DNA of 64,000 nt from Candidatus Gottesmanbacteria bacterium (GCA_043798445.1 JAZDOQ010000027.1:1265-65264); one strand, 5' to 3'; numbered from the stretch's first letter, positions 2,093 through 53,987 are shown. The notes: generated by a model not told the origin, from the sequence alone. Translations and numbers: made by a program.

Positions 2093-2102
2093 AGATATGT
2101 TT

Positions 2103-2753
2103 TTATGTAGATTGTTTGTTCGGTAATGACGCTGGCATCACAACCCCCGGATTATAAAAAGAAAAAAATAGTTGTATAAGTTGGTCGTTTGTTAACTGTT
2201 GTGCTTTTAATCCGAGTTTGGAAAGAAGCCGAATTAAGTGATCGCGTTTTGGAGAAAGTGCTATGAGCGCGCGTTCGATGACATACGATTTTTGATATGG
2301 AAGACCGCTTTTTTTTGTTGAAAACAACACGCCCGGAGACACACCGAGTTCAAGGTTTGAAAAAGGAATAACAATATAAAACTTTTTATCGAGCACCTCT
2401 TTTTCCTTCACGGTTGATTCAATAAATGCGCGGTACCCGTGTATGCTGCTCGCAAGTTTAGGATTTGTTTGTTCTTTTTCTTTATCTTCAAGAAGAAGAA
2501 GATATGCACTGATGTCTTTGTGTTTTGAGCGAATCAGAATTTGAATGGGAAAGGAAAGAGAGTTGAGAATGCCTGCGTACGTATAAATCATTGACTCTTG
2601 TTCGGCGGAAGACAACAAGCTGAAATTAACCGCAGCAACACTGATAATAATCGCACACGATCCATTAGAAAATAAAACAATGTTTTGTGTAATGTCTTCA
2701 ATTTCAGTAAACTGTTGTGTTGATGCTCTGATGGGAACGACAGGTTCTGACAT
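2103..2753 (-). CDS. VirB4 N-terminal-domain-like protein encoded as a separate ORF
   Basis: The 216-aa sequence (IVLFSNGSCAIIISVAAVNFSLLSSAEQESMIYTYAGILNSLSFPIQILIRS) resembles the pre-ATPase region of Gram-positive VirB4-family proteins. Its stop (2103-2105) lies 10 nt from the VirB4-like ATG (2090-2092), in a different frame. Confidence 0.4.
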   Translation of the reverse strand: MSEPVVPIRASTQQFTEIEDITQNIVLFSNGSCAIIISVAAVNFSLLSSAEQESMIYTYAGILNSLSFPIQILIRSKHKDISAYLLLLEDKEKEQTNPKLASSIHGYRAFIESTVKEKEVLDKKFYIVIPFSNLELGVSPGVLFSTKKSGLPYQKSYVIERALIALSPKRDHLIRLLSKLGLKAQQLTNDQLIQLFFSFYNPGVVMPASLPNKQST

Positions 2754-2759
2754 AAAGTT

Positions 2760-4010
2760 TTAAGTATTTGTTGTTTGTCCAAAAATTTGTTTTGACAGGT
2801 TTTCTCTATCTATATCCCGCTTGCTTTTTGCGCCGATTTCAATTGCGGGAACAATGGTGCCATTCAGGGTAACTTGTGCCCGGTCAAATGTATATCGTCC
2901 TCTTGGATCTTCAACCTCGATGAAATACACACCATTAAGAAGTTGTGTGGATGCCGCAAATTGACCAATCTTATTGGTTTTTAGCGCGCGAAGAGGAACC
3001 CCATCTTTATCTCGTACGGTAACAAGAACACCGGGAAGCAGTCCTCCCTGGTTGTCTTTAATAATTCCGGTGACAACGTTGGTGAACGTGGTTAACCGAG
3101 GAAGGCCGGCTCGGGCCGCTGCGTCAGGCATAATAATTTTTACCGTTGGCCCCTGTGATTTTGGAGTAGTGATAATCCCGGCTGATTGGGCAGGTTTTTT
3201 GGGAGCCTGAGGAGTAATTGATTGTTTTTTCATGGTGAGAAGCTGTTCTTCTGTTTCACGTTTTTGTTTCATCATTTCTGTCATTTCTTTTTGCAGTTCC
3301 AACACGCGCGTTTCTGCTTGTGCCTTGTCGCCCAGTTCTGTTTGAAGTGACGCAATTTTATTTTGGAGGGCATCAAGTTCCGGATTTTTTTCTTGCGGCA
3401 CCACAGAAACAACGGGTTGTATCAACTGAACATGTGGAGCTTGAGTGGTGGAAGCGGCAACGCTCAATTTAGGTTTCGGGAATATGTCATCAACCCAGGA
3501 AAATAAGGAATCAAAAAAAGATTTTTTTGGTTCAGTGGGCGTTTGTGTGTAGAACCCCTGAAGTGTGGTTGCAATCGGCGTACCAGCTGTTTGTGTTGGT
3601 GGAGGCGGGGCAGAAGATAAAGCCGTACGTTGTGTTTGTGTTGTGGCGGTGACCGGATTTATCTGCGGTTCAGCCCTTGGTTGGGTTCTGTGCCACACAA
3701 ATTGTGTTGGGGCGTAGACGCTTTTTAGAAATGATAATACCCATACATCCATGGGACGTTCTTCAATGGGAACAAATGCAAACCCGATTCCCATAAGTCC
3801 AAACAATACGGTGAGCGGCCAGGTAAAAAAGAATGGAAGGGGAAGGATATAGGATAAGTAAGCGAGTATGGCTCCGGCCGCAAGGTACCCAAACTGTTTA
3901 ATCGTCATGTCGCCGATTAAACGGAACTGAAACGTCGTGACATTTTGCGGGACAGGATGTTGTTCCATAAGGACACAATCTATTGTAAAGAAGAACGACG
4001 GATCTCGCAA
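2760..4010 (-). CDS. PrgI/VirB3-like membrane hairpin fused to a Pro/Thr/Gln-rich linker, a coiled coil and a C-terminal carboxypeptidase-regulatory-like beta-sandwich domain
   Basis: The N-terminus MTIKQFGYLAAGAILAYLSYILPLPFFFTWPLTVLFGLMGIGFAFVPIEERPMDVW has two TM helices typical of PrgI/VirB3. The middle is low-complexity PT-rich followed by the coiled coil LQTELGDKAQAETRVLELQKEMTEMMKQKRETEEQ. The C-terminus GVLVTVRDKDGVPLRALKTNKIGQFAA...GVYFIEVEDPRGRYTF is CarbopepD_reg-like. Confidence 0.55.
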   Translation of the reverse strand: MRDPSFFFTIDCVLMEQHPVPQNVTTFQFRLIGDMTIKQFGYLAAGAILAYLSYILPLPFFFTWPLTVLFGLMGIGFAFVPIEERPMDVWVLSFLKSVYAPTQFVWHRTQPRAEPQINPVTATTQTQRTALSSAPPPPTQTAGTPIATTLQGFYTQTPTEPKKSFFDSLFSWVDDIFPKPKLSVAASTTQAPHVQLIQPVVSVVPQEKNPELDALQNKIASLQTELGDKAQAETRVLELQKEMTEMMKQKRETEEQLLTMKKQSITPQAPKKPAQSAGIITTPKSQGPTVKIIMPDAAARAGLPRLTTFTNVVTGIIKDNQGGLLPGVLVTVRDKDGVPLRALKTNKIGQFAASTQLLNGVYFIEVEDPRGRYTFDRAQVTLNGTIVPAIEIGAKSKRDIDRENLSKQIFGQTTNT

Positions 4011-4100
4011 GAGGAAAAAGCGCGTTAGGACCGTGAAAACTTTAATATTTTCATTTCACGAAAATAAGTGAAATTGTTTTTCTTGTGATATGATTACTTC

Positions 4101-6278
4101 ATGGACCGCGATTTTGTCGTTGTTGAAATAAAAAACACGAGAGACAGTGAAGAAACCCCACTAGCGATGGAACAAGTGTTTGCTGCAATGGGAAGCGGAA
4201 AACCACAAGGGTTGATGTCTCGATTGTTACAAGGAAAATCAAAAGAATCATGGTTGAGTTTTGAAATTGTTGCCGTTGATAGTGCAATTCATTTTTATTT
4301 GGTAACGACAAAAACCACACGTGCGTACATTGAAAGTCAATTAACTGCACAATATCCAAAACTAGCCATAACAGAAACAAAAGACGTAATATCAAGATTA
4401 TTTGAAACAGCACGTGCTGTAACACAGCTTGTGCTTGCGAGCCCCTTTTATTACCCATTAAAAACTTACAAAGACGTCAGGGACATTGATTTGCTCTCAA
4501 GTGTGCTTGGGTGTCTGGCAAAATTACATAAAGATCAGTCAGCAGCTATTCAAATTCGCGTTGTTCCAGCGGGGGCTTCATGGCAACGTCATGCCGCATC
4601 CGTTGTTTCGCACGGTATTCCAGACCCGTCGTTTCCAGGAAGAACAAAAAATCATCCCCAAGCCAGGCTTATAGAAGGAAAAACAAACCAGGTGGGGTTT
4701 CAAACAACAATTCGTGTTGTTGCGACGGGCGCCTCGCAAGAAGCAGCGCAGTCAACACTGCAAACAGTTGCGGGAACGTTTGGCGTGTTTGGGCTCGGTG
4801 AAGGAAACACGCTCGTAACGAATAAACCTGCATTTTGGCAACGGAAAAAACTTGAAACCGCGATGGTGGACCGATCCGGAGCGTTTGCTCCGAAATTTCA
4901 TGTGTTTGGTGCGTCAGAACTTGCCTCTCTTTGGCACCCCCCGGGATTACTGCTTTCAGCGATCAAAAATATTTCCTGGGGAGCAACATTAACCGGAGAA
5001 GCGCCAGAGAATCTTCCGATTGCAACAGACAACGAAGAAGACAAAAAAAAGATAAACTTTTTTGCGAGAACCGAGTTTAAGAACAAACCAACAACGTTTG
5101 GGATTAAGAGTGATGATCGTAGGAAACACTTGTATGTGGTGGGAAAAACAGGAACGGGAAAATCGACCATGATTGCAAATATGGCAATTAATGACATGCG
5201 AAATCACGAAGGAATGGCAGTTGTTGATCCACACGGAGATTTAACAGACGCGCTTCTTGACTATATTCCGTCATTCAGGCTTAATGACATTGCGTATCTT
5301 GATCCTTCAGATGTTGCACACCCGTTTCATTTAAACCCGCTGGAACTGAAAAATCCTGCACATAGAGAACTTGTTGCATCAGGAATCGTATCTATTTTTT
5401 ACAAACTCTATCACTACTCATGGGGACCGCGACTGGAATATATTTTGCGTAACTGTATTTTGACACTGCTGTACGTTCCAAACTCCACACTGTTGGCAAT
5501 TCCAGAGATTCTCACAAATGATAGATATCGGGAAAAAATAGTGATGCAGCTTCCGGATCAGGTACTGAAAAACTTTTGGATTAATGAATACAACAAGTTA
5601 TCTCCACAAATGAGAAGTGAATCCATCATGCCTATTTTAAACAAAGTAGGGCAGTTTCTGTCTTCACAAACCATTCGAAATATTGTTGGCAGCCCGAAAT
5701 CAACGATTGATCTTGAAGAAATGATGAACAAGGGAAAGATTATTCTTGTGAATTTGTCTCAAGGAAAACTCGGGGAAGACAACAGTGCGCTTCTCGGAGC
5801 CATGATCATTACCAAAATCCAACTTGCCGCCATGAATAGGGTGTATGAGGCAGAACACGCACGTAAAGATTTTTACTTATACGTTGACGAGTTTCAAAAC
5901 TTTGCAACAAGCTCGTTTATTAAAATCCTTTCTGAGGCACGAAAATACCGATTGAATCTTACGCTTGCCAATCAATATATCGGACAAATTGATGAAGACG
6001 TGCAAAACGCTATTTTTGGCAACGCAGGCTCAATTGTTTCTTTTTGTGTTGGCGCAACGGACGCCAGGCCCTTGGCGCGGGAGTTTGGACTCAAATATAA
6101 AGAAGAAGAGCTAGTGCAGCTTGGCAATTATCAAATTGTTCTCAAGCTTTCCATTGATAATCATACCTCAAGTCCGTTTTCAGCAACGACACTACCACTT
6201 CCACGGTCTCATAATCAAAGTCGTGAAAAAGTAATACGCGCAAGTCGTGAGCGGTATACGAAAACAATTGAGAAGTAA
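4101..6278 (+). CDS. virD4: VirD4/TraG/TraD-like type IV coupling-protein ATPase, without N-terminal transmembrane segment
   Basis: Walker A LYVVGKTGTGKST, VDPHGDL motif, and Walker B FYLYVDEFQNFATS. A ~300-aa N-terminal soluble domain has no obvious hydrophobic helices. Divergently oriented to the VirB4/PrgI genes. Confidence 0.7.
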   Translation: MDRDFVVVEIKNTRDSEETPLAMEQVFAAMGSGKPQGLMSRLLQGKSKESWLSFEIVAVDSAIHFYLVTTKTTRAYIESQLTAQYPKLAITETKDVISRLFETARAVTQLVLASPFYYPLKTYKDVRDIDLLSSVLGCLAKLHKDQSAAIQIRVVPAGASWQRHAASVVSHGIPDPSFPGRTKNHPQARLIEGKTNQVGFQTTIRVVATGASQEAAQSTLQTVAGTFGVFGLGEGNTLVTNKPAFWQRKKLETAMVDRSGAFAPKFHVFGASELASLWHPPGLLLSAIKNISWGATLTGEAPENLPIATDNEEDKKKINFFARTEFKNKPTTFGIKSDDRRKHLYVVGKTGTGKSTMIANMAINDMRNHEGMAVVDPHGDLTDALLDYIPSFRLNDIAYLDPSDVAHPFHLNPLELKNPAHRELVASGIVSIFYKLYHYSWGPRLEYILRNCILTLLYVPNSTLLAIPEILTNDRYREKIVMQLPDQVLKNFWINEYNKLSPQMRSESIMPILNKVGQFLSSQTIRNIVGSPKSTIDLEEMMNKGKIILVNLSQGKLGEDNSALLGAMIITKIQLAAMNRVYEAEHARKDFYLYVDEFQNFATSSFIKILSEARKYRLNLTLANQYIGQIDEDVQNAIFGNAGSIVSFCVGATDARPLAREFGLKYKEEELVQLGNYQIVLKLSIDNHTSSPFSATTLPLPRSHNQSREKVIRASRERYTKTIEK

Positions 6279-13782: not shown

Positions 13783-14127
13783 TCAACCCTTAAATGAAGG
13801 GATTATTAATGCTTTAATATCAATTCCCAGGAATTGTCCGACAAGGGTGAAAATTGCATACGCAGCGGCAACGATAACAAGCCCAACTAATGCGTTCGTA
13901 ATTTTATTCCGCGCTTGTTCAAGTTGCGCCTTTTCTCCACCCGATGTAAGCCATTGAATACCGCCCATGATCAGGTAAAGAAGTGTAAGAAGAAATGCAA
14001 AAATAAAAAGGAGTCCAACAATATTACTAATGAGACTCCCTATAATTGTTCCACCTCGTTCCGTGCTGCCGGAGCCAAGCGCGGGGGGAAGTACCGGATT
14101 TCGTAATTCTGCAAGTGTGTGATTCAT
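13783..14127 (-). CDS. T4SS pilin family protein (paralog 3)
   Basis: IMGGIQWLTSGGEKAQLEQARNKITNALVGLVIVAAAYAIF. The start was moved to the ATG at 14125-14127 (MNHTLAEL) to avoid a 125-nt overlap with the upstream gene. Confidence 0.55.
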   Translation of the reverse strand: MNHTLAELRNPVLPPALGSGSTERGGTIIGSLISNIVGLLFIFAFLLTLLYLIMGGIQWLTSGGEKAQLEQARNKITNALVGLVIVAAAYAIFTLVGQFLGIDIKALIIPSFKG

Positions 14128-14131
14128 ATTG

Positions 14132-14512
14132 TTATTTAAATTGAATAAGTTCTCCGACCGACGATGGCAAAAGAATGGTGTCCCAGCCAAAAAATTGTCC
14201 GGCAAGGGCAAGAATTGCCCAGCCGGCAACAACAACAACAAGTCCAATAAACGCATTGGATATTTTGTCGCGCGCCTCTGTTAGCTTTGCTTTGTCGCCA
14301 GCCGCAGTGATCCAACTGATGCCCCCCATGGTAACCTGTATAAGAAACCAAATAGCAGCAACAATAGTGAGAAGTCCGATAATCGCCGAGATGGCATTGG
14401 TAAATGCGGAGAATGCGGTTGGACCAGTAAATGTTGTTCCCCCGAAAGGACCGAGTCCTGCGTCTGGACCCGTGCCACCAATCTTTCCAAGATCAACAGC
14501 AAGTAGTTTCAT
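14132..14512 (-). CDS. T4SS pilin family protein (paralog 4)
   Basis: VTMGGISWITAAGDKAKLTEARDKISNAFIGLVVVVAGWAILA; 126 aa. Confidence 0.55.
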   Translation of the reverse strand: MKLLAVDLGKIGGTGPDAGLGPFGGTTFTGPTAFSAFTNAISAIIGLLTIVAAIWFLIQVTMGGISWITAAGDKAKLTEARDKISNAFIGLVVVVAGWAILALAGQFFGWDTILLPSSVGELIQFK

Positions 14513-23864: not shown

Positions 23865-24203
23865 CTACTTAAATGTATCTCCGATAGCCGTAATACCAAA
23901 GACAATTCCTAAAAGTTGTGTAATCCAATAAGCCAAAAAAATAATAACAAATCCAACTACTCCATAAGTAAGTGTTTGTTTCCCCTTTTCCATTTTTTTA
24001 GCATCTCCAGCACTGGTAAGAAGTGTGAATCCTGCACTAATAATCATGATAAGGAGCACAATACCCGCTATGGGGAGTGCGAATTTATATATATTAGAAA
24101 GAATAGTACCGATGGTAACATTTTTATCACCCAGTGGGCCAACTAGATTAGGAGTTCCAGGAAGAGTTAATTTTTGTGCGAGTAAGTGATCCATATTATT
24201 CAA
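23865..24203 (-). CDS. T4SS pilin family protein (paralog 7)
   Basis: IISAGFTLLTSAGDAKKMEKGKQTLTYGVVGFVIIFLAYWI; start overlaps the upstream gene stop by 8 nt. Confidence 0.55.
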   Translation of the reverse strand: MNNMDHLLAQKLTLPGTPNLVGPLGDKNVTIGTILSNIYKFALPIAGIVLLIMIISAGFTLLTSAGDAKKMEKGKQTLTYGVVGFVIIFLAYWITQLLGIVFGITAIGDTFK

Positions 24204-25101
24204 ATCCTGGAATTCTTAATATTTTAACCCCAATTAATTGTAGGAGAAAAATTGAAAAGATGATAAGAAGAAGTCCTGTGATTGCTGCACTGATCAGTTC
24301 TTTTCCTGCGTTAAGTTTTTCTGGGTTTCCAGCAGACATCATTATTTGCAAAGCGCCGAAAAGAATAAGAAGAAATGCTATTCCTCCAGCTATACCGATA
24401 CCAAAAGGAAGAAACGTATTAATTATTCCAGAGGGTGATGCATCAATGCATCCAATTGCGGTCCATACTTTTTTTTCAGCTTTCATACAATCATCACAAG
24501 CTTCTTTTTGAGGAGATATGAAAGTATTGCAGACATAACCAGCCGAGGCTGGTTGTGTAGGTGTATTAGGACATCCTGCCTTTGATGTACAACATTTATA
24601 ACTTGAGCCTGGGCATAAGTGTATATAACTTGAATAATCAATGTTTGAGCCAGCGATAGTAGGGGGACAGCCAGTAAATTTAAAGGGATCTCCATAGACA
24701 CATTTATACGCTGGCGTTGGCGGGAATGGTGGACATCCCGTCTTTGGATCGCAACATTTTTTTGGATTGAATCCAGGACAATTTACATATCCAGATTTAC
24801 TACATACGCTATCAAATCCAATAATTCCCACGTCGTCTATACATTTTTTAATTGGAGTTGGTGAGGCGTTGTTAGAAATACAAGAACATCCTGCAGTAGC
24901 GCATGTAGAGATTGTGCCGGCACAACGAGCTGTTGTCCCAGTGGGGCATTTGTTCATTGTAGCATCTACTTCACACGAAAGATCGCCAACGCCATAATGG
25001 CTGACATTTTTACATTCACACGTTTGTGCAAAAATTTTTGTCGGATTTTGAAAAAGAACGACAAGAAGAAAAGCAAAGATAAATAAAATTAGTTTTTTCA
25101 C
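24196..25101 (-). CDS. secreted Cys-rich protein with a C-terminal T4SS-pilin domain (candidate minor/tip pilin)
   Basis: Signal peptide MKKLILFIFAFLLVVLFQNPTKIFAQT, then ~200 aa with about 27 Cys and an internal repeat (KKCCDPKTGCPPFPPTP / YKCCTSKAGCPNTPTQP). The C-terminus LQIMMSAGNPEKLNAGKELISAAITGLLLIIFSIFLL is a pilin module. Confidence 0.55.
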   Translation of the reverse strand: MKKLILFIFAFLLVVLFQNPTKIFAQTCECKNVSHYGVGDLSCEVDATMNKCPTGTTARCAGTISTCATAGCSCISNNASPTPIKKCIDDVGIIGFDSVCSKSGYVNCPGFNPKKCCDPKTGCPPFPPTPAYKCVYGDPFKFTGCPPTIAGSNIDYSSYIHLCPGSSYKCCTSKAGCPNTPTQPASAGYVCNTFISPQKEACDDCMKAEKKVWTAIGCIDASPSGIINTFLPFGIGIAGGIAFLLILFGALQIMMSAGNPEKLNAGKELISAAITGLLLIIFSIFLLQLIGVKILRIPGFE

Positions 25102-45638: not shown

Positions 45639-46082
45639 TTATTTCCAACCAAATTCCGAGTAGAAAATATTTTTGCAAACACAGTGGATTGCATGGGAAA
45701 CATAGGGGACGACATCTCTTGGAAGTGCATCAAGGGGTGTCCAGACAAGTTGATTGCATTTTTCCGGTTCCATATTTTTCAGTGTTCCACTCCATGAATT
45801 GATCCGGAAGAAAAAATCTATACGAATATCATCACTTTTTCGATGCATGATATGGGAAAGAAGAAATTGAGAAGGAATTAGAGTTATTCCGACCTCTTCT
45901 CGCATTTCCCGAATAAGGGCTTGAGTAATTGTTTCTCCGTCTTCAACATGTCCTGCAGGAACACTTAATTTTCCGTCTGCATACCCTGTTTGGAATCTAC
46001 GGGAGAGCAAGATATTGTTTTTTTTGATAAAGAATGCATATGAGGAAGCGATCATTTTATATTGATGTTGCTTCATAGACAA
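45639..46082 (-). CDS. NUDIX hydrolase
   Basis: Nudix box VPAGHVEDGETITQALIREMREEVG. Confidence 0.7.
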   Translation of the reverse strand: MSMKQHQYKMIASSYAFFIKKNNILLSRRFQTGYADGKLSVPAGHVEDGETITQALIREMREEVGITLIPSQFLLSHIMHRKSDDIRIDFFFRINSWSGTLKNMEPEKCNQLVWTPLDALPRDVVPYVSHAIHCVCKNIFYSEFGWK

Positions 46083-46149: not shown

Positions 46150-46221
46150 TCCCCTGTAGCTCAATGGTAGAGCGGCTTCCTGTTAAGAAGAAGGTTCGAG
46201 GTTCGAATCCTCGCGGGGGAG
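46150..46221 (+). tRNA. tRNA-Asn (anticodon GTT)
   Basis: Acceptor TCCCCTG/CGGGGGA, D-arm TAGCTCAATGGTAGAGC, anticodon loop CTGTTAA, T-arm CGAGGTTCGAATCCTCG. Confidence 0.75.
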
Positions 46222-46268
46222 CACTTCGGCAAGCTCAGTGCAAGCCAAACACTATTATAATAGGAAGC

Positions 46269-46559
46269 ATGTGGTACGTTTATCTACTTCTTTGCGACCA
46301 GAAAACTTTTTACATTGGAATAACACCTGATATTAAATCAAGACTCATAGAGCACAGAAGTAAACAATCATTTTTCACAAAAAAGTTTTCTGATATTCAA
46401 TTGATGTACTGTGAAGAATATAAAGATAAGTTTGCAGCAGCAAAAAGGGAAAGACAGTTAAAAGGTTGGTCTGTCGCAAAGAAAAGATTATTAATCGAAG
46501 GAACCCTTGGAATTAATCGGTGCACTGAGCTTGTCGATGTCCTCAATCAGAGGATTTGA
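46269..46559 (+). CDS. small GIY-YIG nuclease-domain protein (cassette 1)
   Basis: YVYLLLCDQKTFYIGITPDIKSRLIEHRS. The start was moved to ATG 46269; the track ORF 46164 runs through the tRNA-Asn. Confidence 0.65.
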   Translation: MWYVYLLLCDQKTFYIGITPDIKSRLIEHRSKQSFFTKKFSDIQLMYCEEYKDKFAAAKRERQLKGWSVAKKRLLIEGTLGINRCTELVDVLNQRI

Positions 46560-46769
46560 TTTCGAATTTATCTTGAGCATTTCGGCGAGCTCAATGCGAG
46601 CTGAAATAGCCGAAAGATCCTCGCGGGGGAGCAAAATAGAGTTTAGAACGTATAGACAAGCTAAAATACTAACACAACATCAGCATTTAAGCCTTCTAAT
46701 TTTAGAGTACACCGTTTTTGACTTCTTAATAGTTGTATGGACCTCCTTGTATGATATTATAGGGGTATT
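46560..46769 (+). repeat. cassette-boundary element 0, containing an exact 17-nt direct repeat of the tRNA-Asn 3' end (ATCCTCGCGGGGGAGCA, 46617-46633 = 46207-46223)
   Basis: Nested hairpins (TTTCGGC...GCCGAAA; GAGCTC). The 3' part GAGCAAAATAGAGTTTAGAACG...ATCAGCATTTAAGCCTTCTAATTTTAG is shared with the elements at 48339 and 49872. Confidence 0.7.
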
Positions 46770-48329
46770 ATGCCTGATCCTGGTTTAGCCGAATTACCAT
46801 TAAGAAAATTAGAATTACCTCAATTTCAACAAGCAAAGATTCGTATTGAAAAATCAGCTCGAATAAAAAATGATTTACTTCCTACGCATAGTAGCCCAAA
46901 TGGTCAGCGATTGGCAGAGGTAGGAAATGTCGAGAAAAAATCTGTAGGATTAAAAGAAGGCGATAAATCTGGATTATCTGAAATTGCAATTGATATTCGT
47001 GGTTATCAGGAACAACGCTTTAAGATGAATTATGTTTCACCTGACGGTAAAAATATTACAGAATCTTTAGTGTTTTTCGTCAAAACGAGCCAGGCTGGAC
47101 AACCTGAATGGCTGACAGTTGGCGGACAACCATTAGCATTAAACGCTGACTTATATGACAGTCGTCAACCTAGTAATATACATGGTCAACAGAAGGATTG
47201 CGCGCGCACTTTTATCCCCCGCGTAGACGGTCGAGGAGCGTATACAGGCATTGTTAGTCTATTCGAACAACCACGAAATACAGGTAACGAAAATATATTA
47301 CCTAAAAGTGATGGTGGAAAAGGATCTTTACAAGTGCCTACTACACCAGATTTTGCTAGATCTTCTTTGCAGACAATGGCACATCCCGAACAGAATAATG
47401 ATTTGGTAAAGTATGAAGCAACTGCAAGAAAGCTAAAACTGGATGAGCAGAAACCACCTAAGCCAGATAGTATTATAGCTCCGGTTGTTGGTAACATGTT
47501 TGGTGAAGATGACCATCCGACTCTTGCTGGACGGGTGATATCAAGGGTATATGAGCAGTTGATACAACGTGATAATTTTAAAACTCCAAATTCTCGCGAA
47601 GAAGCTATTAAAATTAATGAACTTGGAAAACAAGTAATTCAAAAGACGGCAGACTATGCCAAAAGCAAATTGCTTCAACGCTGGAATAGTGGAGACCAAC
47701 GTATTGTATTTGGTAATAATCGACAACCTGGAACTGACGCTTTCCATTTTGACGGTGATGCTAATCCGGCAAAAGACCATGTTTTTTATTTTAATAAAGC
47801 CTCAAGGACATGGAAAAACGCGAATGAGTCACAAGTGAGAGCATACATAACATTATCTCCCCAACAAATAGATGCTCTTCCACAGCATTTTGTTGATTTG
47901 AGTCTTGAAATGTACGATGCTGGAATAGATTTTAACGGGAAAAGTTGTAGTTTATATGGGGCAATGCGTAGAACCGACAATATGGTCTTTTATATTAGTG
48001 CAAGCGATCAGGTAAAGGCATCTGAATTGATAAAAAATTATATGAATAAAAATGGCATAGGAAGAGGATATGTATCAGCAGCGATACCAAGTCCACAAGA
48101 AGGATTATCATGGGCTATGGACCCAAGTGAATCTCAGAAAAACACATGGCAGAAGGTGTCAGGTTCATCTGAAAAGGTTAGTTATAATGCTTATATAGCT
48201 ACAATGTGTATGCCTACATATTTAGATCGTTTAGCTGATGCTCAGAGTAAGGTTGGTGATAGTGTAAGTGCGGATATATATAGGCAGGAAGCCCAACGTG
48301 TTCGGTTGATAATTTCAGGATCAAGTTAA
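46770..48329 (+). CDS. 519-aa orphan protein (cassette 2)
   Basis: Long ORF with no recognisable motif. Confidence 0.4.
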   Translation: MPDPGLAELPLRKLELPQFQQAKIRIEKSARIKNDLLPTHSSPNGQRLAEVGNVEKKSVGLKEGDKSGLSEIAIDIRGYQEQRFKMNYVSPDGKNITESLVFFVKTSQAGQPEWLTVGGQPLALNADLYDSRQPSNIHGQQKDCARTFIPRVDGRGAYTGIVSLFEQPRNTGNENILPKSDGGKGSLQVPTTPDFARSSLQTMAHPEQNNDLVKYEATARKLKLDEQKPPKPDSIIAPVVGNMFGEDDHPTLAGRVISRVYEQLIQRDNFKTPNSREEAIKINELGKQVIQKTADYAKSKLLQRWNSGDQRIVFGNNRQPGTDAFHFDGDANPAKDHVFYFNKASRTWKNANESQVRAYITLSPQQIDALPQHFVDLSLEMYDAGIDFNGKSCSLYGAMRRTDNMVFYISASDQVKASELIKNYMNKNGIGRGYVSAAIPSPQEGLSWAMDPSESQKNTWQKVSGSSEKVSYNAYIATMCMPTYLDRLADAQSKVGDSVSADIYRQEAQRVRLIISGSS

Positions 48330-48338
48330 GATATAATA

Positions 48339-48445
48339 AGTCCGAACATCATCCATTGCTCGGAGCAAATGATGGTTTAGAGCGTATTGACAATCTAAAC
48401 CACTAATTAAAACATCAGCATTTAAGCCTTCTGATTTTAGTTTAC
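48339..48445 (+). repeat. cassette-boundary element A
   Basis: AAGTCCGAACATCATCCATTGCTCGGAGCAAATGATGGTTTAGAGCGTATTGACAATCTAAACCACTAATTAAAACATCAGCATTTAAGCCTTCTGATTTTAG. It contains the imperfect hairpin CATCATCCATTGCTC-GG-AGCAAATGATGG. The GTCCGAACATC...CGGAGCAA part aligns to the tRNA-Asn T-arm/acceptor 3' strand. Confidence 0.7.
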
Positions 48446-48500
48446 TACGTCTTGATGTAATTGTTATATTTTTTCTAATTTGTATATAATAGAGTAAGTT

Positions 48501-49811
48501 ATGAAAAAAATATTCATTATATTAACTTTTTTTCTCTCTTTTTTTATTCTTTTGGATTTAATACGTAGTTCCAATTCTATTAAAGCTCAAGGAAATGACC
48601 ATGTTCCAGGACAAATTTTAGTTAAATTTAAAGAAAATACTTCCCAGGAGGAAATCAACAGACAGCTTAATGGTCATCGGGCAAGCGTGAAAGAAAAAAT
48701 AGAAAAACTCGGCGTTTTAGTACTTCGGGTTCCGGAAGTTGCCCAGGATCAAGTGTTAACAGCTTTGTCAAAAAATACTCATGTAGAGTTTGCGGAATTT
48801 GATTATCTTGCGGAAACCTTTACCATTCCGAATGATCCTGACTTTGGTAATCAATGGGGTTTGGAAAATATTGGGCAGACAATTCAAGGTGTTCCTGGAA
48901 TAATTGATGTAGATATTGATGCGTCAACAGCTTGGAATATCACTCAAGGTGGGGTAAAAGTAGCCATTCTTGATACTGGAATTGATCAATATCATGAGGA
49001 TTTAGACTCACAAATTGTTGTAAACAAAGACTTTACTGGTTCAACGTCAGGATATAACGATATTTATGGACACGGGACTCATGTTAGCGGAATAGTGGCG
49101 GCACGAACTAATAACGGTATGGGGGGAGCGGGAGTTTGTCCTAACTGTCAATTGATGAATGGTAAAGTATTAAATGATAGTGCCTCAGGTGCTTATTCTT
49201 GGATAGCAAGCGGTATAACATGGGCAACAGATAATGGTGCAAAAGTTATCAATATGAGCTTAGGTGGTTCAACCCCATCAAAAACACTTGAGAGTGCAGT
49301 AAATTATGCATGGAATAACGGTGTCGTCGTCGTCGCCGCTGCAGGTAACTCTGGAAATACATCAAAAACATATCCCGCAGCTTATGTAAATGCCATTGCG
49401 GTTGCCGCAACTGATAATCAAGATAAAAAGGCTACGTTTTCAGAATACGGTAGTTGGGTGGATGTCGCCGCTCCCGGTGTTCATATTTATTCAACATGGA
49501 ATGATGAAACGAGCACTTCGGCACCTTATCCAGTATGTTATTCACCAACGCAATGTTATAAATATGCATCAGGAACTTCTATGTCTACTCCTATGACTAC
49601 GGGAGTAGTTGCGTTGATTTGGTCGACAGGAAAATATACAACCGCTTCAGAAGTAAGAAGTAGACTTGAATTGACCGCTGATAAAATAACAGGAACAGGA
49701 ACATATTGGTTAGCAGGAAGAATAAATGCTGGTAACGCAGTGGGTGATTATATTGCGCCAACTCCTACTCCTACACCAACTTCAAAACCAAAACCCGGCC
49801 GGAATAAGTAG
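48501..49811 (+). CDS. secreted subtilisin-like (S8) serine protease (cassette 3)
   Basis: Signal peptide; catalytic triad motifs DTGIDQYHEDL, HGTHVSGIVAA and GTSMSTPMTTGVVAL. C-terminus PTPTPTPTSKPKP. Confidence 0.85.
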   Translation: MKKIFIILTFFLSFFILLDLIRSSNSIKAQGNDHVPGQILVKFKENTSQEEINRQLNGHRASVKEKIEKLGVLVLRVPEVAQDQVLTALSKNTHVEFAEFDYLAETFTIPNDPDFGNQWGLENIGQTIQGVPGIIDVDIDASTAWNITQGGVKVAILDTGIDQYHEDLDSQIVVNKDFTGSTSGYNDIYGHGTHVSGIVAARTNNGMGGAGVCPNCQLMNGKVLNDSASGAYSWIASGITWATDNGAKVINMSLGGSTPSKTLESAVNYAWNNGVVVVAAAGNSGNTSKTYPAAYVNAIAVAATDNQDKKATFSEYGSWVDVAAPGVHIYSTWNDETSTSAPYPVCYSPTQCYKYASGTSMSTPMTTGVVALIWSTGKYTTASEVRSRLELTADKITGTGTYWLAGRINAGNAVGDYIAPTPTPTPTSKPKPGRNK

Positions 49812-49848
49812 AGCTCAATAAGAGATAGGTTTAGTTTTAGCAAATACT

Positions 49849-49864
49849 TAACATCTAGATGTTA
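49849..49864 (+). promoter_or_regulatory. perfect 16-nt palindrome TAACATCTAGATGTTA downstream of the S8 protease gene
   Basis: Self-complementary 16-mer that is not followed by a T-run. It could be an operator or a hairpin. Confidence 0.35.
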
Positions 49865-49871
49865 TAAAATA

Positions 49872-49990
49872 AGTTCGAACATCATCCATTGCTCGGAGCC
49901 AGTGATAGTTTGGAGCGTATTGACAATCTAAACTACTAATTAAACATCAGCATTTAAGCCCTCTAATTCTAATTTACAATGTTTTGATAT
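49872..49990 (+). repeat. cassette-boundary element B (about 85% identical to A)
   Basis: AAGTTCGAACATCATCCATTGCTCGGAGCCAGTGATAGTTTGGAGCGTATTGACAATCTAAACTACTAATTAAACATCAGCATTTAAGCCCTCTAATTCTAATTTACAATG. Confidence 0.7.
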
Positions 49991-49999
49991 ACTTCGGTT

Positions 50000-50467
50000 A
50001 TGGAAGAAAAAAGAAAAGACTTTCAAATTGTTGAGTTTCAACCTAAGTACCAAACAATGGTTATTGATCTTATTAGTAAAGTTTTGCGAGACCAGAAAGT
50101 TATTCCTGATTCTACGGAACCAATAGATGATGAAGATTTACATTATATTCCAAGGATATATTTCGGTAAGGGAAGGTTCTGGGTTGCAGTACATAAAGAA
50201 AATGTGATCGGAACGGTTGCAATAAGAGATACGGGAGGTAATACAGCTAAATTAAATCGTATGTTTGTGGAGACTCAATTTCATGGAACTGGTATTGGTC
50301 AGACATTATTAGATTACGCTTTGGGTTTTGCAAGAGAACAGGGATTTAGGGAGATAATTTTGAATACGCATCTACTAATGAAAAGAGCGCACCGTTTTTA
50401 TGAGAAAAACGGGTTTCAGAAAGTAAAAAAGGTTTCCGATACATATCATTATCAACGTAGTTTGTGA
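50000..50467 (+). CDS. GNAT family N-acetyltransferase (cassette 4)
   Basis: Acetyl-CoA-binding region FHGTGIGQTLLDYALGFAREQGFREIIL; 155 aa. Confidence 0.75.
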   Translation: MEEKRKDFQIVEFQPKYQTMVIDLISKVLRDQKVIPDSTEPIDDEDLHYIPRIYFGKGRFWVAVHKENVIGTVAIRDTGGNTAKLNRMFVETQFHGTGIGQTLLDYALGFAREQGFREIILNTHLLMKRAHRFYEKNGFQKVKKVSDTYHYQRSL

Positions 50468-50474
50468 GATAAAA

Positions 50475-50520
50475 AGTCCGAACATCGTCCATTGCTCGGA
50501 GCAGAAATGAGTGGAAATAA
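50475..50520 (+). repeat. cassette-boundary element C (5' part only: AGTCCGAACATCGTCCATTGCTCGGAGCAGAAATGAGTGG)
   Basis: Same GTCCGAACATC / CCATTGCTCGGAGCA motif pair as A/B. The 3' part is replaced by a different promoter region. Confidence 0.6.
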
Positions 50521-50525
50521 AGCCA

Positions 50526-50598
50526 AAATCGTGAATTTATATCAATTTTTACCTATTTTTCACGATTATGTTGACAAAATCGTGAATAAGTGTATAAT
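50526..50598 (+). promoter_or_regulatory. sigma-70-like promoter TTGACA-16-TATAAT for the Fic gene, embedded in AAATCGTGAA / TTCACGATT repeats (candidate operator)
   Basis: AAATCGTGAAT at 50526 and 50577 (direct repeats), TTCACGATT at 50559 (inverted), TTGACA at 50571-50576, TATAAT at 50593-50598. Confidence 0.5.
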
Positions 50599-50606
50599 TC
50601 GACTAT

Positions 50607-51485
50607 ATGGCCAAAACACTTAATATTTTTAATAAGATACGTTCTCTTCGTCAAAGATACTATCAAACAGCAATTGGTAAAGAGGCCCTTATTCAACTGA
50701 TTAACGAAGCTGAAGTCGCTGACCAGGTTTATAACTCTAACGCTATTGAAAACAGTACGTTGACTCTCGAAGAAACTGAAAAAATTCTTCTCCAAATTGA
50801 TTTGGATCGATATGTAACCGAACGGGAAATTTTTGAAACGAAGAATTTGGCACGGGTCGTTTCATACATAGATAAAAAAGCCAAGGAGCAGGAACTGACG
50901 TTGGACGTGATTTTATTTCTTCATAAAATGCTGATCTCTAATATTCGAGATGATGTTGCCGGAAGATTCAGAAAAGATAATGAATTTGTTCGAGTCGGTA
51001 GCCATATAGCCCCTGCTCCAAAAGAAATTACTGAGCGACTAGAAAACATGTTGGCGACACATAACGCTGCTAGTCATGAGCTTATTATTAAGCGTATCGC
51101 TCGTTTACATTTGACGTTTGAATACATCCATCCTTTTGTTGACGGGAATGGTCGTATTGGACGAGCAATCAATAATTATTTGCTTATTCGAGAAGGGTTT
51201 GTTCCCATAAACATAAAGTTTATTGATAGGAAAAAATATTACGAGGCGTTTAAAGAATTTGATGGAAAAGAAGTAACGACGGTGATGGAAGAAATGGTGG
51301 GAAAAGCATTAACGAACAGTTATCACAAACGACTTGTGTATCTGGAGGGTAAAAAAATCATTACATTATCCGATTATGCTAAAAGTAATAAGCTTTCTCA
51401 TTCCAATCTTATAAATAAAGCCGGTCGACAAACTATTGAAGCTTTTTTGGAAAAGAATATTTGGAAAATTGGTGCCGACAAATGA
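50607..51485 (+). CDS. Fic/Doc family protein (cassette 5)
   Basis: Canonical Fic motif HPFVDGNGRIGR. Confidence 0.85.
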   Translation: MAKTLNIFNKIRSLRQRYYQTAIGKEALIQLINEAEVADQVYNSNAIENSTLTLEETEKILLQIDLDRYVTEREIFETKNLARVVSYIDKKAKEQELTLDVILFLHKMLISNIRDDVAGRFRKDNEFVRVGSHIAPAPKEITERLENMLATHNAASHELIIKRIARLHLTFEYIHPFVDGNGRIGRAINNYLLIREGFVPINIKFIDRKKYYEAFKEFDGKEVTTVMEEMVGKALTNSYHKRLVYLEGKKIITLSDYAKSNKLSHSNLINKAGRQTIEAFLEKNIWKIGADK

Positions 51486-51496
51486 GCTATTATCAT

Positions 51497-51551
51497 ATCA
51501 GCATTTAAGCCTTCTAATATTAGTTTACAATGTTCTTGATATACTATTTGT
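51497..51551 (+). repeat. cassette-boundary element D (3' part only: ATCAGCATTTAAGCCTTCTAATATTAGTTTACAATGTTCTTGATATACT)
   Basis: Matches the 3' halves of elements 0/A/B and runs up to the ATG of the next gene. Confidence 0.6.
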
Positions 51552-52544
51552 ATGACACTTTTAAAACCACCAAAACTTCAACGAGGGGATACAATTGGTA
51601 TTGTGGCCACTTCTTTTCCTTTACCTAGAAATGAATTTCCAGATTCATCCTACATTCAAGAATACAAAATCGCTATCCAAGAGTTGGAAAATATGGGTTT
51701 CAAAGTTAAGGAAGGGAAAAACTTAAATAGAGTAAAATGGTGGTTTGCGGGAACTGCTCAAGAAAGAGCGACAGACATAAATGAAATGTTTACCGACCCA
51801 GAAGTTAAAGCAATCATGGTTCATGAAGGAGGACAGTCAGCAATTGCAGTATTGGAATTAATTGACTATGAGCTTGTAAAAAAGCACCCAAAACCCTTCA
51901 TTGGTTTTTCTGATGTGACAAACATTCATATAGCTTTGCATGCACAAACAGGTCTTGTTGGATTTCATGGACCGCTTTTAACTTATAGTCTTGGCAAAAT
52001 ATGGGAGAAATATTTACCTGACAAAAAAGAAGAAGGAAAATCACGACTATTGAATATGTTAACTTCAGACAAACCTGCTGGAGTTATTTCACCCTTTACC
52101 GAGTGGCAATGTTGGAAAGAGGGGGAAGCAGAAGGCACTTTATTTGGTGGGAATTTAGGAAACCTTGCATCATTAGTTGGAACAAAATATTTTCCCAAGC
52201 TTGATGATATTCAAAACTCGATACTTTTTTGGGAAATTGATAATGTACCATCATACAGAATTGAAAAAGGATTGTATCAGCTCAAATATGCGGGAATATT
52301 AGATTGCATATCCGGAATGTTGGTTGGTAAGCTACCTGATATTAAGAGAACTGCATGGGAAGGACTTCAAGAACCAACTCTAAAAGAGATTGTGTTGGAG
52401 ACATTGAAGGACTACAGCTTTCCTATAATTGGTGAAGTTGATTTTGGGCATAAAACAGTTGATACACCAATGCCCATTGGTATACGAGCCAAAATGATTG
52501 CTAAAGAATTACGTTTGGAGTTTTTAGAAGCTGCTGTTCAATAG
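51552..52544 (+). CDS. LD-carboxypeptidase (peptidase S66; LdcA/MccF-like) (cassette 6)
   Basis: LQRGDTIGIVATSFPL ... GFSDVTNIHIALH, typical S66 N-terminal nucleophile region; 330 aa. Confidence 0.7.
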   Translation: MTLLKPPKLQRGDTIGIVATSFPLPRNEFPDSSYIQEYKIAIQELENMGFKVKEGKNLNRVKWWFAGTAQERATDINEMFTDPEVKAIMVHEGGQSAIAVLELIDYELVKKHPKPFIGFSDVTNIHIALHAQTGLVGFHGPLLTYSLGKIWEKYLPDKKEEGKSRLLNMLTSDKPAGVISPFTEWQCWKEGEAEGTLFGGNLGNLASLVGTKYFPKLDDIQNSILFWEIDNVPSYRIEKGLYQLKYAGILDCISGMLVGKLPDIKRTAWEGLQEPTLKEIVLETLKDYSFPIIGEVDFGHKTVDTPMPIGIRAKMIAKELRLEFLEAAVQ

Positions 52545-52554
52545 TGCATATAGA

Positions 52555-52618
52555 AGGTTCGAACATCCTCACTGAAAATCAAATGATTTCCAGCATAAAC
52601 CATTGCGCGGAGCAAGAG
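52555..52618 (+). repeat. cassette-boundary element E
   Basis: AGGTTCGAACATCCTCACTGAAAATCAAATGATTTCCAGCATAAACCATTGCGCGGAGCAAG. The first 18 nt match the tRNA-Asn variable-loop/T-arm (GAAGGTTCGA..ATCCTC). Confidence 0.65.
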
Positions 52619-52640
52619 AAGCATTTGATATAATACATTC

Positions 52641-52985
52641 ATGGTAATTACAAAAACTACTCCGTTTACCTCAGAGGAAATTCAACAACTTCGGGAACAA
52701 TTCGACAGTTATATTAAAACCGTCATTGATATTGAAAAGAAGATTTGTTCAGCAGGATGTGATCGGCATTTTGAGTCGGAAAAGATATTTCTTGATCAAG
52801 GATCAAAACAGGGGAATGTTTGGGGTGGTGGAATCGATTTGGAGACAAAAACGGTAGATGGTAATTCATTCATAAATATTCGTCCCAGCCAAGGAAATAC
52901 AAGTAATGAAATACAAGATTCAGGTATTCGGAAGTCTTTTGAAGAACTAACTAAATATTTTTTTGATGAGATATATGGAAAATAA
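52641..52985 (+). CDS. hypothetical protein (114 aa) (cassette 7a)
   Basis: ORF with a TATAAT-like box about 10 nt upstream; no motif. Confidence 0.35.
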   Translation: MVITKTTPFTSEEIQQLREQFDSYIKTVIDIEKKICSAGCDRHFESEKIFLDQGSKQGNVWGGGIDLETKTVDGNSFINIRPSQGNTSNEIQDSGIRKSFEELTKYFFDEIYGK

Positions 52986-53223
52986 AATAGCATTAGCATC
53001 ACTTGCTATGGACTTAAAGCGTGTTGCGCTTGGACTTCATAGAAAATCAAATACCATGGCAAACCGATTTTTACATGAAGCTATGAAACGGAAAGATGAA
53101 GTGGATACAAAAAAACTCCATCCTTATATGCAACACATTTTTATGAAATTAAATGAACAACTTGATGCTGAAGATGCACTCATGTATAGTACCCGTATTC
53201 AAAACTACGTACTATACAAATAG
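52963..53223 (+). CDS. hypothetical protein (86 aa), overlaps the preceding ORF by 23 nt (cassette 7b)
   Basis: Overlapping small-gene pair; basic/helical sequence. Confidence 0.3.
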   Translation: MMRYMENKIALASLAMDLKRVALGLHRKSNTMANRFLHEAMKRKDEVDTKKLHPYMQHIFMKLNEQLDAEDALMYSTRIQNYVLYK

Positions 53224-53224
53224 A

Positions 53225-53280
53225 TGGTTCGAACATTTCCCTAAAGGCAAGCAAGCGTCTGTTGTGCGGAGCAATATAGA
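53225..53280 (+). repeat. cassette-boundary element F
   Basis: TGGTTCGAACATTTCCCTAAAGGCAAGCAAGCGTCTGTTGTGCGGAGCAATATAG, with the same GGTTCGAACAT...GCGGAGCAA pair. Confidence 0.6.
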
Positions 53281-53285
53281 TTACC

Positions 53286-53951
53286 GTGGTAAAATACACG
53301 TACTGTATGCGATTTAAAAACAGGGTAGAAGCAGGAAAAAAATTAGCCATCACTTTAAGAGAATATAGAAGAGAAAATGTTGTCGTATATGGTCTTCCCA
53401 GAGGCGGAGTGGTGTTAGCGTACGAAATCGCAAAATATCTGCGGTCTCCGCTTGAATTAATTATTATTCGTAAAATCGGTCATCCGTATTCTCCTGAATA
53501 TGCGGTGGGAGTTGTTGCACAAGACGGGTGTACTCTCTATAACGAAAAAGAAATCACATTGATAGATAAAGTCTGGTTAGAGAATGAAAGGGATATAAAA
53601 AGAAAAGAAGCTCAACGGAGGAGAGCGTTGTATAACGTTTGCGGAACTCCTGTATCAGCCGAAGGGAAAATAGCGATTCTCGTTGATGACGGTATCGCTA
53701 CAGGACTGACGGTAACAGTGGGGATTTTGGAACTCAACCATCAAAAACCCAAAAAAATGATAGTTGCTGTTCCTGTTTGCCCTAAAAGCTTTGCAGACGA
53801 AATAAAAGCAGAGGGATATGATTGTGTTGCTCTTGACACGCCGTTTCTTCATGCAGATGCGGTAAATGCGTATTATGAAGAATTTCCACAAGTGTCGGAT
53901 GAGGAGGTTATTCGTTTGATACGCCAAAACCATTCTACGACATATTTGTAA
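53286..53951 (+). CDS. phosphoribosyltransferase-domain protein (cassette 8; alternative start ATG 53307)
   Basis: PRPP-binding motif ILVDDGIATGLTV. Confidence 0.65.
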   Translation: MVKYTYCMRFKNRVEAGKKLAITLREYRRENVVVYGLPRGGVVLAYEIAKYLRSPLELIIIRKIGHPYSPEYAVGVVAQDGCTLYNEKEITLIDKVWLENERDIKRKEAQRRRALYNVCGTPVSAEGKIAILVDDGIATGLTVTVGILELNHQKPKKMIVAVPVCPKSFADEIKAEGYDCVALDTPFLHADAVNAYYEEFPQVSDEEVIRLIRQNHSTTYL

Positions 53952-53987
53952 GGAAATATCCTCGTATATAAATGGTATACTAAATTT

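Follow-up and report, generated by a model that had tools for sequence, protein, structure and literature searches.

Candidate-phyla-radiation bacteria have tiny genomes, and to our knowledge little has been established about how they acquire accessory genes. The question is raised by a 64-kb stretch of DNA from a Candidatus Gottesmanbacteria bacterium (the window, meaning throughout the whole 64 kb), in which a tRNA-Asn(GTT) gene without an intron (46150–46222, + strand, found by ARAGORN and Rfam) heads a row of accessory genes separated by related repeats: what put these genes there? A preliminary description, made from the sequence alone, took the row for an array of integron-like cassettes captured at the tRNA. 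The analysis reported here, in which the loci of relatives are labelled L001, L004 and so on, retains the array and favours another agent. With a probability of roughly 0.6, a large serine recombinase (LSR), for which the window has no gene, inserted small mobile units one behind another at the tRNA-Asn 3′ end and so built up the region from 46150 to 53951 as a tandem stack.

The repeats were examined first for their number and sequence. The motif GTYCGAACAT occurs five times in the 64 kb, always on the + strand (48340, 49873, 50476, 52557 and 53227), where shuffled sequences gave an expectation of 0.27 and none of 100 shuffles reached five. The five sites had been described, as RGTYCGAACAT, to lie 3′ of stop codons, and this was borne out, the cores of the window beginning 3–11 nt past the stop codon. 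A companion sequence, TTGYNCGGAGCM, was found with zero mismatches nowhere but at these five sites. Site F, the last, carries TGTTGTGCGGAGCAA where the CATTGC of the preliminary description is expected, and the cores of sites E and F are interrupted by insertions of 29 nt and about 24 nt, respectively. Sites A and B, the long copies for which about 85% identity over ~105 nt had been claimed, are 87% identical across 92 nt. The 3′ arm attributed to these two and to elements 0 and D, ATCAGCATTTAAGCCYTCTRAT, was recovered in four copies (46679, 48414, 49946 and 51497) against none expected. At the junction between the Fic and S66 genes (element D) the distal flank stands alone, with no core. As E and F are interrupted and D lacks a core, the array is better counted as about seven tandem accessory units than as the eight clean single-gene cassettes originally proposed. 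Copies of the repeat are confined to 46.6–53.3 kb and the other 56 kb of the window are free of the core.

A degenerate pattern search for the 27-nt core, GTYCGAACRTCRTCCATTGCNCGGAGC, showed it in about 45 Patescibacteria contigs (12 GTDB species-representative genomes and 33 metagenome contigs), at one locus per genome. The dispersed, genome-wide behaviour of a REP-like or terminator-like intergenic repeat was not seen in the GTDB scan, in which each genome held a single stretch. A profile search gave 86 distinct core copies, which are co-oriented within each locus and spaced 0.4–2 kb apart; over all loci the core starts 0–11 nt past a stop codon. A co-oriented tRNA-Asn lies upstream of the array in 10 of the 10 loci that reach far enough (the window, L004, L008, L014, L021, L029, L036, L042, L046 and L052). 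Among relatives the block DnaG-RpoD-aminotransferase-(DUF7489)-tRNA-Asn is conserved, as is a distal block of SET, Zn-ribbon, RNase H-like, patatin and BacA genes, and the gene content between the two is wholly different from genome to genome. In L004, for example, the aminotransferase has 66% amino acid identity to that of the window, yet the same repeats stand between different genes. A simple conserved operon is thus ruled out.

The differences between relatives are insertions and deletions of cassettes that break exactly at GGAGC. The clearest series concerns a cassette encoding an S8 protease: in L008 tRNA-Asn is followed by X, in L029 the S8 cassette lies between tRNA-Asn and X, and in the window the order is tRNA-Asn, GIY-YIG, orf519, S8, GNAT. 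Homology between the window and L029 (73% amino acid identity for S8) begins exactly at GGAGCA and runs through the flank, the promoter, the gene and core B, while to the left of GGAGCA lies core A in the window and the true tRNA-Asn end in L029. A Fic cassette is likewise common to the window, L027 and L022 (82% amino acid identity), and the DUF5674 cassette of the window is also found in L004, L027, L040 and L035. When 200 nt on each side of all sites were compared, 66 site pairs shared sequence on the upstream side only, 100 on the downstream side only and just 13 on both. All the flank types seen after cores were also seen directly after a genuine tRNA-Asn: type a in L001, L011 and L029, type b in L052, type c in L008, type d in L002 and type e in L004. 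Since every flank type occurs in both situations, the left arm of a junction can be either the 27-mer or the tRNA 3′ end, and the flank goes with the cassette that follows. The type-a flanks of many cassettes and genomes all end at the same point (..TAGTTTAC). The loci are, therefore, arrays of co-oriented small cassettes in the style of an integron, with content that varies between genomes, and the initial claim of a tandem array anchored at tRNA-Asn and bearing site-specific recombination sites stands: relatives show both presence/absence and reordering of cassettes, and no conserved operon.

The array loci were then analysed for an enzyme that could act at these sites. BLAST clustering and a pooled Pfam scan, which superseded a crude motif screen of the loci for tyrosine and serine recombinases that had found nothing, revealed a single recombinase recurrently linked to the arrays, an LSR with the domain architecture Resolvase + Recombinase + Zn_ribbon_recom. 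No tyrosine or other recombinase recurs among the 135 open reading frames (ORFs) from 45 array loci covered by the Pfam scan. The LSR gene is adjacent to a site in several relatives, intact in L006, L010, L051 and L061 and as remnants in L033, L036, L041, L059 and L019. In L006 and L010 the gene directly adjoins the 3′ end of tRNA-Asn, on the other strand, and its ORF continues antisense through the tRNA (..AWLP/REDSNLEPSS). The remnant in L033 instead reads through a core (..AWLP/LMDDVRTRNF, followed by a stop), and L019 contains two fossils, ..LWLQNPLM/LRAMDDVRTYY, that match the C-terminus of the L006/L051 type. In L051 an intact LSR gene heads an element of ~10 kb that has a canonical core at its end, 9 kb away, and at L051/L023 the LSR element is followed by LSR-less units. 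Core-like P arms also accompany the LSR genes of L059 and L061, with a convergent cargo gene and TAATAA ahead of them.

The two kinds of ending recur across the family. Among the best 120 of 985 homologues most C-termini read WLP-R-x-DSN, the antisense of the tRNA, and a minority have the attP form WL[PR]x[LIM]Dx[VF]RT. In this family (proteins P0071–P0294) the ORF spans the crossover, WLP/LxDxVRT.. becoming WLP/RxDSNxxP.. on integration. The last ~10 residues are thus exchanged when the element integrates, and the att state can be read from the protein C-terminus alone. More than 100 short C-terminal remnants of LSRs were also noted in Patescibacteria.

The sites of the window are identical in character to the ends of these genes. 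In antisense they encode YAxxxxWLRAMDDVRT[YF][YF], in frame and without stops; site A gives ..SKLKSEGLNADVLISGLDCQYALNHHLLRAMDDVRTYY, 46 codons without a stop, and site B gives LDCQYAPNYHWLRAMDDVRTYF, for comparison with the LSR C-terminus ..LRLEGKxxRYDWIKPFDKIAFYASRxxWL[PR]x[MI]DxVRT. The 3′ arm of the preliminary description (arm3) is the antisense of ..EGLNAD. When LSR C-terminal remnants were compared with the whole window by tblastn, site B was the best match (E = 0.009). The 61 distinct cores vary at every third base, and in the LRAMDDVRT frame there are 117 synonymous and 30 non-synonymous codon differences, a CGA-to-AGA arginine switch included, where 27% would be expected to be synonymous. 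For flank types b and c an origin from LSR 3′ ends is suggestive only. An assignment of the middle hairpin and arm3 as promoter/terminator modules had been considered and was superseded by the in-frame match to LSR C-termini.

Further evidence came from the geometry of the sites, which were aligned on the first GG of GGAGC. The sequence GGTTCGAAC occupies half-site positions 16–24 in the core and 11–19 in tRNA-Asn. The motif contacted by the zinc-ribbon domain (ZD) of LSRs lies 5 bp nearer the centre in attB than in attP (PMC3783163), and the offset between core and tRNA equals this published shift. The same offset is seen family-wide in the LSR C-termini, where DSN occupies codons 6–8 and [VF]RT codons 8–10. 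On the right arm AGCGTA is found at positions 19–24 in LSR-encoded and cassette sites alike, and conserved blocks lie at positions 16–24 on both arms. The GG is common to the tRNA and the cores and coincides with both the homology breakpoint and the centre of the hairpin dyad, and core plus P′ arm measure ~52–55 bp, the size of an LSR attP. This suggests that the hairpin more plausibly reflects the dyad symmetry of a site bound by a dimer. Covariation in the hairpin is weak, 40 of 500 shuffles reaching the observed value, with the dyad CATCAT/ATGATG 82% paired and showing three compensatory changes.

The proposal that the repeats derive from the 3′ half of the tRNA must be revised in the same light. 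The likeness itself is well above chance: the core scores z = 5.7 against tRNA-Asn, which ranks top of the seven tRNAs of the window, and 0.07% of genomic 31-mers score as high. Judged from the sequences, it appears to be the likeness of an attP half-site to an attB half-site, 5-bp motif shift included, and not a mark of descent. The T-loop-like GTTCGAA of the core was also considered as a tRNA-like minihelix or RNA tag; this was rejected, as there is no pairing partner and no 5′ acceptor strand, and the periodicity is codon-like.

A mechanism can be proposed on this basis. Each separator would be an LSR attachment site, with the 27-nt core as P-type left half-site, the first GG of GGAGC as crossover dinucleotide, the next ~25 nt (..TTTAGAGCGTA..) as P′ half-site, and the ~105-nt long repeat, arm3 included, as the truncated 3′ end of an LSR gene in antisense. 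The tRNA 3′ half (GGTTCGAATCCTCGCGGG/GGAGC) would serve the primary attachment site as its B-type left arm, with its GGTTCGAA motif 5 bp nearer the centre than in the core and a presumed crossover at GG 46218–46219. A unit would then consist of P′ fossil, own promoter, gene or genes, stop codon and P arm, so that an excised circle would carry one complete attP-type site, and an exchange at GG, whether the partner is the tRNA junction or a second site, would insert or remove the unit. LSR-less units would be mobilised by an LSR working in trans, its gene lying at another place in the genome or on a co-resident element, and the LSR family would have to be able to use an occupied, attL-like tRNA junction as target. 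The S8 case and the identical truncation point of the type-a stumps indicate that LSR-less units move as units, for which an LSR acting in trans is the simplest explanation; for the window the best reading is that the recombinase acts in trans or is now lost. By the same anatomy sites A and B would be complete attP-type sites and site C a nearly complete one with a truncated P′ arm, while D, E and F appear damaged; the distal half of the array is therefore probably no longer mobile.

A stronger version of this proposal is that Patescibacteria own a functional integron analogue built on an LSR, in which promoter-bearing single-gene cassettes are captured, excised and reshuffled by an LSR whose gene lies beside tRNA-Asn or on a co-resident element, a stump of the LSR gene serves as minimal attP, a non-canonical reaction of attP with an attL-type site takes place at tRNA-Asn, and the cassettes form a lineage-wide accessory pool. 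This can be put forward only tentatively, its chances being somewhat below even.

Several observations weigh against an LSR as the builder of the stack. Every junction after tRNA-Asn looks attL-like (B + P′), and recombination of attL with attP by canonical LSRs requires a directionality factor (PMC3783163). No B′-type right arm was found anywhere in the sampled loci, so serial insertion needs non-canonical use of substrates. Many cores, those of E and F included, hold insertions of 17–65 nt between the presumed RD and ZD contacts, which a double-stranded half-site should not tolerate. The 3-nt periodicity of the cores is just as synonymous when they are read in sense (VRTSSIARS, 102 synonymous and 26 non-synonymous differences), and local alignment of flank types b and c with LSR 3′ ends gave weak z-scores. 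The enzyme and its free intermediates were not encountered either: tblastn with three LSRs found none in the 64-kb window, no intact LSR gene abuts a canonical core in the ~60 loci, no circular cassette junction was observed, and viral contigs scanned for the core and for the L010 LSR matched neither, giving no free phage attP. Pfam found no recombinase or transposase domain in the ORFs of at least 130 aa in the window, so the earlier statement that none is encoded there holds.

The same evidence was weighed under four other explanations. Accretion followed by decay would make each unit the residue of a whole LSR element whose recombinase gene was deleted to a stump of ~100 nt; LSR-less units would never have moved, and the differences between genomes would reflect deletion and vertical descent. 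LSR stumps of various lengths are indeed common, whole LSR elements are stacked before older units at L051/L023 and L036, the synonymous variation of the cores suggests sampling from many functional LSR alleles, and sites D, E and F of the window are damaged. Independent deletions would not, however, all end at ..TAGTTTAC, as the type-a stumps do. The cores are conserved far better than their surroundings. The S8 unit has the same truncated stump, promoter, gene and core in the window and in L029, at another position and with other neighbours, and is precisely lacking from L008. Accretion and decay alone are thus a rather doubtful account of the array. Homologous recombination after DNA uptake, in which RecA would swap cassettes by way of the tRNA, the 27-mers and the ~100-nt flanks and an LSR would have made only the first repeats, would also give breakpoints at the edge of homology; repeats of 27–110 nt and 75–92% identity flank every unit, and the window contains genes resembling those for uptake or transfer by a type IV secretion system (T4SS) or pilus. 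These arms are short and diverged for RecA, however, and although tRNA and core, the left arms, share no homology, the junction falls exactly at GGAGC. The strict co-orientation, the single locus and a conserved 27-mer of half-site size with its 5-bp shift point rather to recognition by a protein, and RecA is an unlikely agent.

Less probable again, and in our judgement very unlikely, is an element acting on the transcript, the 27-mer being a terminator or processing signal at the mRNA 3′ end, or an antisense terminator, instead of a recombination site. Its position 0–11 nt past stop codons would fit, as would the hairpin insertions tolerated at one position and the scoring of three window cores as minus-strand terminators with a hairpin and T-run (11 terminator-like sites in all, 4.8 expected). 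Against this, each genome has the 27-mer at a single locus, the remaining 56 kb of the window have none, and at cassette junctions a tRNA 3′ end can take its place; the sequence of the 27-mer is conserved and not its structure, with codon-like periodic variation, and Rfam (gathering and E-value thresholds) gave no family on the repeats, only the tRNA. A terminator role of the cores is at most secondary. The minus-strand terminator-like segments lie at 48341–48364, 49876–49895 and 50477–50500; they could be what is left of the terminator that the antisense LSR gene once had, and might still act against antisense transcription. The reading first given to the locus, a true integron-like system in which an IntI-like tyrosine recombinase acts on folded, attC-like hairpins of single-stranded DNA derived from the tRNA, is scarcely credible. 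It would account for the co-oriented, mostly single-gene cassettes of variable content, and site A does fold as single-stranded DNA better than shuffled sequences (z = −3.3), and the dyad described above is largely paired. Many functional-looking cores, however, have no partner arm, the covariation is not above controls, and the RYYYAAC/GTTRRRY boxes are absent. A tyrosine recombinase is present neither in the window, among ORFs of at least 130 aa, nor recurrently in the arrays, and it is a serine recombinase gene that is fossilised, in frame, in the sites. The cassettes were also expected to be poor in promoters and are not: they carry their own −10/−35 elements, and TGATATAAT is kept upstream of shared cassettes.

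With an LSR-built stack as the preferred reading, the array can be followed from the tRNA outwards. The 17-nt tRNA-Asn 3′ end, ATCCTCGCGGGGGAGCA, at 46207–46223 has an exact second copy at 46617–46633; a repeat search agreed with the preliminary description that the two bracket the GIY-YIG gene (96 aa). The GIY-YIG unit (46224–46616, +; ORF 46269–46559) has, besides this duplication, 21-nt direct repeats at 46225–46245 and 46581–46601, and is probably an atypical, separate insertion at the tRNA 3′ end. A solo 22-mer, CTTCGGCAAGCTCAGTGYAAAC, was observed right after GGAGCA in two arrays that have no GIY-YIG gene (L027, 4454–4475; L035, 4177–4198), and small GIY-YIG genes adjoin tRNA-Ser in L002 (3386–3634) and tRNA-Asn in L052 (750–911). 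The pattern suggests a small mobile element distinct from the cassettes and directed at tRNA ends. The nuclease was considered as a general cassette enzyme and rejected, as it was found in three loci only.

Element 0 (46617–46710, +) comprises the tRNA 3′-end copy (46617–46633, GG 46628–46629) and a type-a right arm, an LSR-gene fossil, which directly follows the true tRNA-Asn in the three relatives listed above for this flank. By sequence it would be an attL-type junction (B arm + P′ arm) forming the 5′ end of the orf519 cassette. The cargo of that cassette is a 519-aa orphan with a weak HopA1-like Pfam hit (46770–48329, +). It is followed by site A (48337–48445, +), with the 27-nt core or P arm at 48340–48366, GG at 48362–48363, a P′ arm to about 48391 and type-a LSR fossil to 48445, and then by the gene for a secreted S8 subtilase with a prodomain (48501–49811, +). 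Site B (49870–49977, +) has its core at 49873–49899, GG at 49895–49896, and P′ arm and type-a fossil to 49977; its neighbour is a GNAT acetyltransferase gene (50000–50467, +). Site C (50473–50519, +) has an intact core (50476–50502, GG 50498–50499) and a truncated P′ arm.

The Fic cassette (50527–51485, +) consists of a promoter/operator region and the Fic ORF (50607–51485). Its sigma-70 promoter (50571–50598, TTGACA-16-TATAAT) is perfect, matching the consensus at 12 of 12 positions. Direct and inverted ATCGTGAAT repeats overlap the promoter within 50527–50598, a layout kept in L027 and L022, and look like an autoregulatory operator that travels with the cassette. Element D (51497–51528, +) is the distal part of a type-a LSR fossil only (ATCAGCATTTAAGCC..TAGTTTAC), its core and P′ arm having been deleted, and precedes the S66 LD-carboxypeptidase gene (51552–52544, +). 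Site E (52557–52613, +) has its core split by a hairpin-forming insertion of 29 nt (~52571–52599), and the same variant occurs in L024/L030. The DUF5674 gene (52641–52985) and an overlapping ORF of 86 aa (52963–53223) form one two-gene cassette (52641–53223, +). Site F (53227–53272, +), its core split by ~24 nt, is the last array site. The terminal unit, a phosphoribosyltransferase gene (53286–53951, +), has no core after it and is possibly a resident gene distal to the array; an orthologue with 47% amino acid identity lies at the distal end of the L004 array. Pfam agrees with the cargo as initially listed (GIY-YIG nuclease, 519-aa orphan, S8 protease, GNAT, Fic, LD-carboxypeptidase, small ORF pair and phosphoribosyltransferase), and all the cargo genes are on the + strand.

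The core insertions are 17–65 nt long, in many cases able to form hairpins, and all occupy the same place in the core, between ..CGTC(C) and (C)CATTGC. They were located in the window at 52571–52599, 53238–53261 and 46567–46616, and in L019 (7612), L020 (1488, 2696 and 4390), L023 (5770), L027 (8218), L035 (4130 and 4796) and L044 (2607); certain types were found again in different genomes. In the sense frame of the core, VRTSSIARS, an in-frame TAA or TAG stands immediately before.

Some features of the wider setting were also recorded. A protein encoded in the flanking DNA has 100% identity to one from a Ca. Gottesmanbacteria (Microgenomates) metagenome-assembled genome. In several relatives the anticodon loop of tRNA-Asn is interrupted after CTGT by a group I intron (Rfam RF00028, 53–69 bits), for example in L029 (337–568), L052 (978–1187) and L021 (2889–3128) and also in L006, L010 and L011; ARAGORN misses the tRNA-Asn of these relatives because the intron interrupts it. 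A NUDIX gene of the window (45639–46082, −) is the orthologue (51–57% amino acid identity) of a + strand NUDIX gene that in L002, L004 and L008 closes the variable region immediately ahead of SET, and the window is without the DUF7489 gene that normally precedes tRNA-Asn. The displaced NUDIX gene and the missing DUF7489 gene suggest a local rearrangement around the array. T4SS-like genes at 224–6278, 13783–14256 and 24196–25101 encode a TraG P-loop/VirB4-like ATPase, a PrgI-family protein, a TrwB-like coupling protein and T4SS pilin-like proteins, possibly a DNA transfer or uptake apparatus on the same contig. Several of the species-representative metagenome-assembled genomes with Patescibacteria-type arrays and synteny (L015, L017, L018, L019–L022 and L024) are titled ‘uncultured Gammaproteobacteria’ or ‘Bacteriovorax’, probably through mislabelling.

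The closest known system is the composite island of the staphylococcal cassette chromosome (SCC, including SCCmec). There the serine recombinases CcrAB or CcrC insert elements at the 3′ end of rlmH (orfX), and pseudo-SCC units without recombinase depend on supply in trans (10.1101/336396, PMC12648241). The array would share with SCC the insertion by a serine recombinase at the 3′ end of a conserved gene, and it shares the tandem elements bounded by repeated integration-site sequences and the presence of recombinase-less units in the stack, as at L051/L023. It differs in its target, tRNA-Asn instead of rlmH, in its lineage, Patescibacteria, in the size of its mostly single-gene units (0.6–1.7 kb, against 10–60 kb for SCC), and in its sites, in which stumps of the recombinase gene itself can be recognised.

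The closest analogy is the integron, including arrays of clusters of attC sites lacking integrases (CALIN). In both there is one array per genome, headed by a primary site, with co-oriented small cassettes, a site at the 3′ end of each gene and content that varies among relatives, and arrays without recombinase exist. In contrast to an integron, with its tyrosine recombinase IntI and its folded, structure-defined attC, the array would use a serine enzyme on double-stranded pairs of attP-like half-sites of conserved sequence; its cassettes have their own promoters and do not rely on a common Pc, and its primary site is a tRNA 3′ end. Phage LSRs (phiC31, Bxb1 and the Listeria A118/LI integrase) have the same domain architecture and a distal ZD motif 5 bp further in for attB than for attP (PMC3783163), and their sites of ~50 bp around a central dinucleotide would have a counterpart in the sites proposed here around GG. 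The target here is instead a tRNA 3′ end, the recombinase ORF crosses the crossover with exchange of its last ~10 residues, and serial insertion at an occupied attL-like junction is non-canonical. Islands made by tyrosine integrases at tRNA genes resemble the array in the tRNA 3′-end anchor, the regenerated tRNA and the partial tRNA-like repeats between stacked elements. No tyrosine integrase is found in the array, however, its units are single genes, and its repeats, the GIY-YIG unit aside, are a distinct 27-mer with a 5-nt offset and not copies of the tRNA end. In the literature no description was found of such arrays, or of integrons, cassettes or tRNA-targeting serine recombinases, in Patescibacteria.

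The locus in the window and the ~45 related loci point to a dedicated single-site platform for gene exchange, re-invented with a serine recombinase. If this is correct, the family would offer a natural set of LSR/att pairs for a conserved tRNA 3′ end, with attP, attB and attL states that can be read, which would be useful in the discovery of enzymes for genome engineering. It would also be a test case for a relaxation of the LSR directionality rules that permits serial insertion. For the organisms themselves it would provide a mechanism for the flexible gene content of Patescibacteria, the cargo here being Fic proteins, toxins, proteases, acetyltransferases and cell-wall enzymes.

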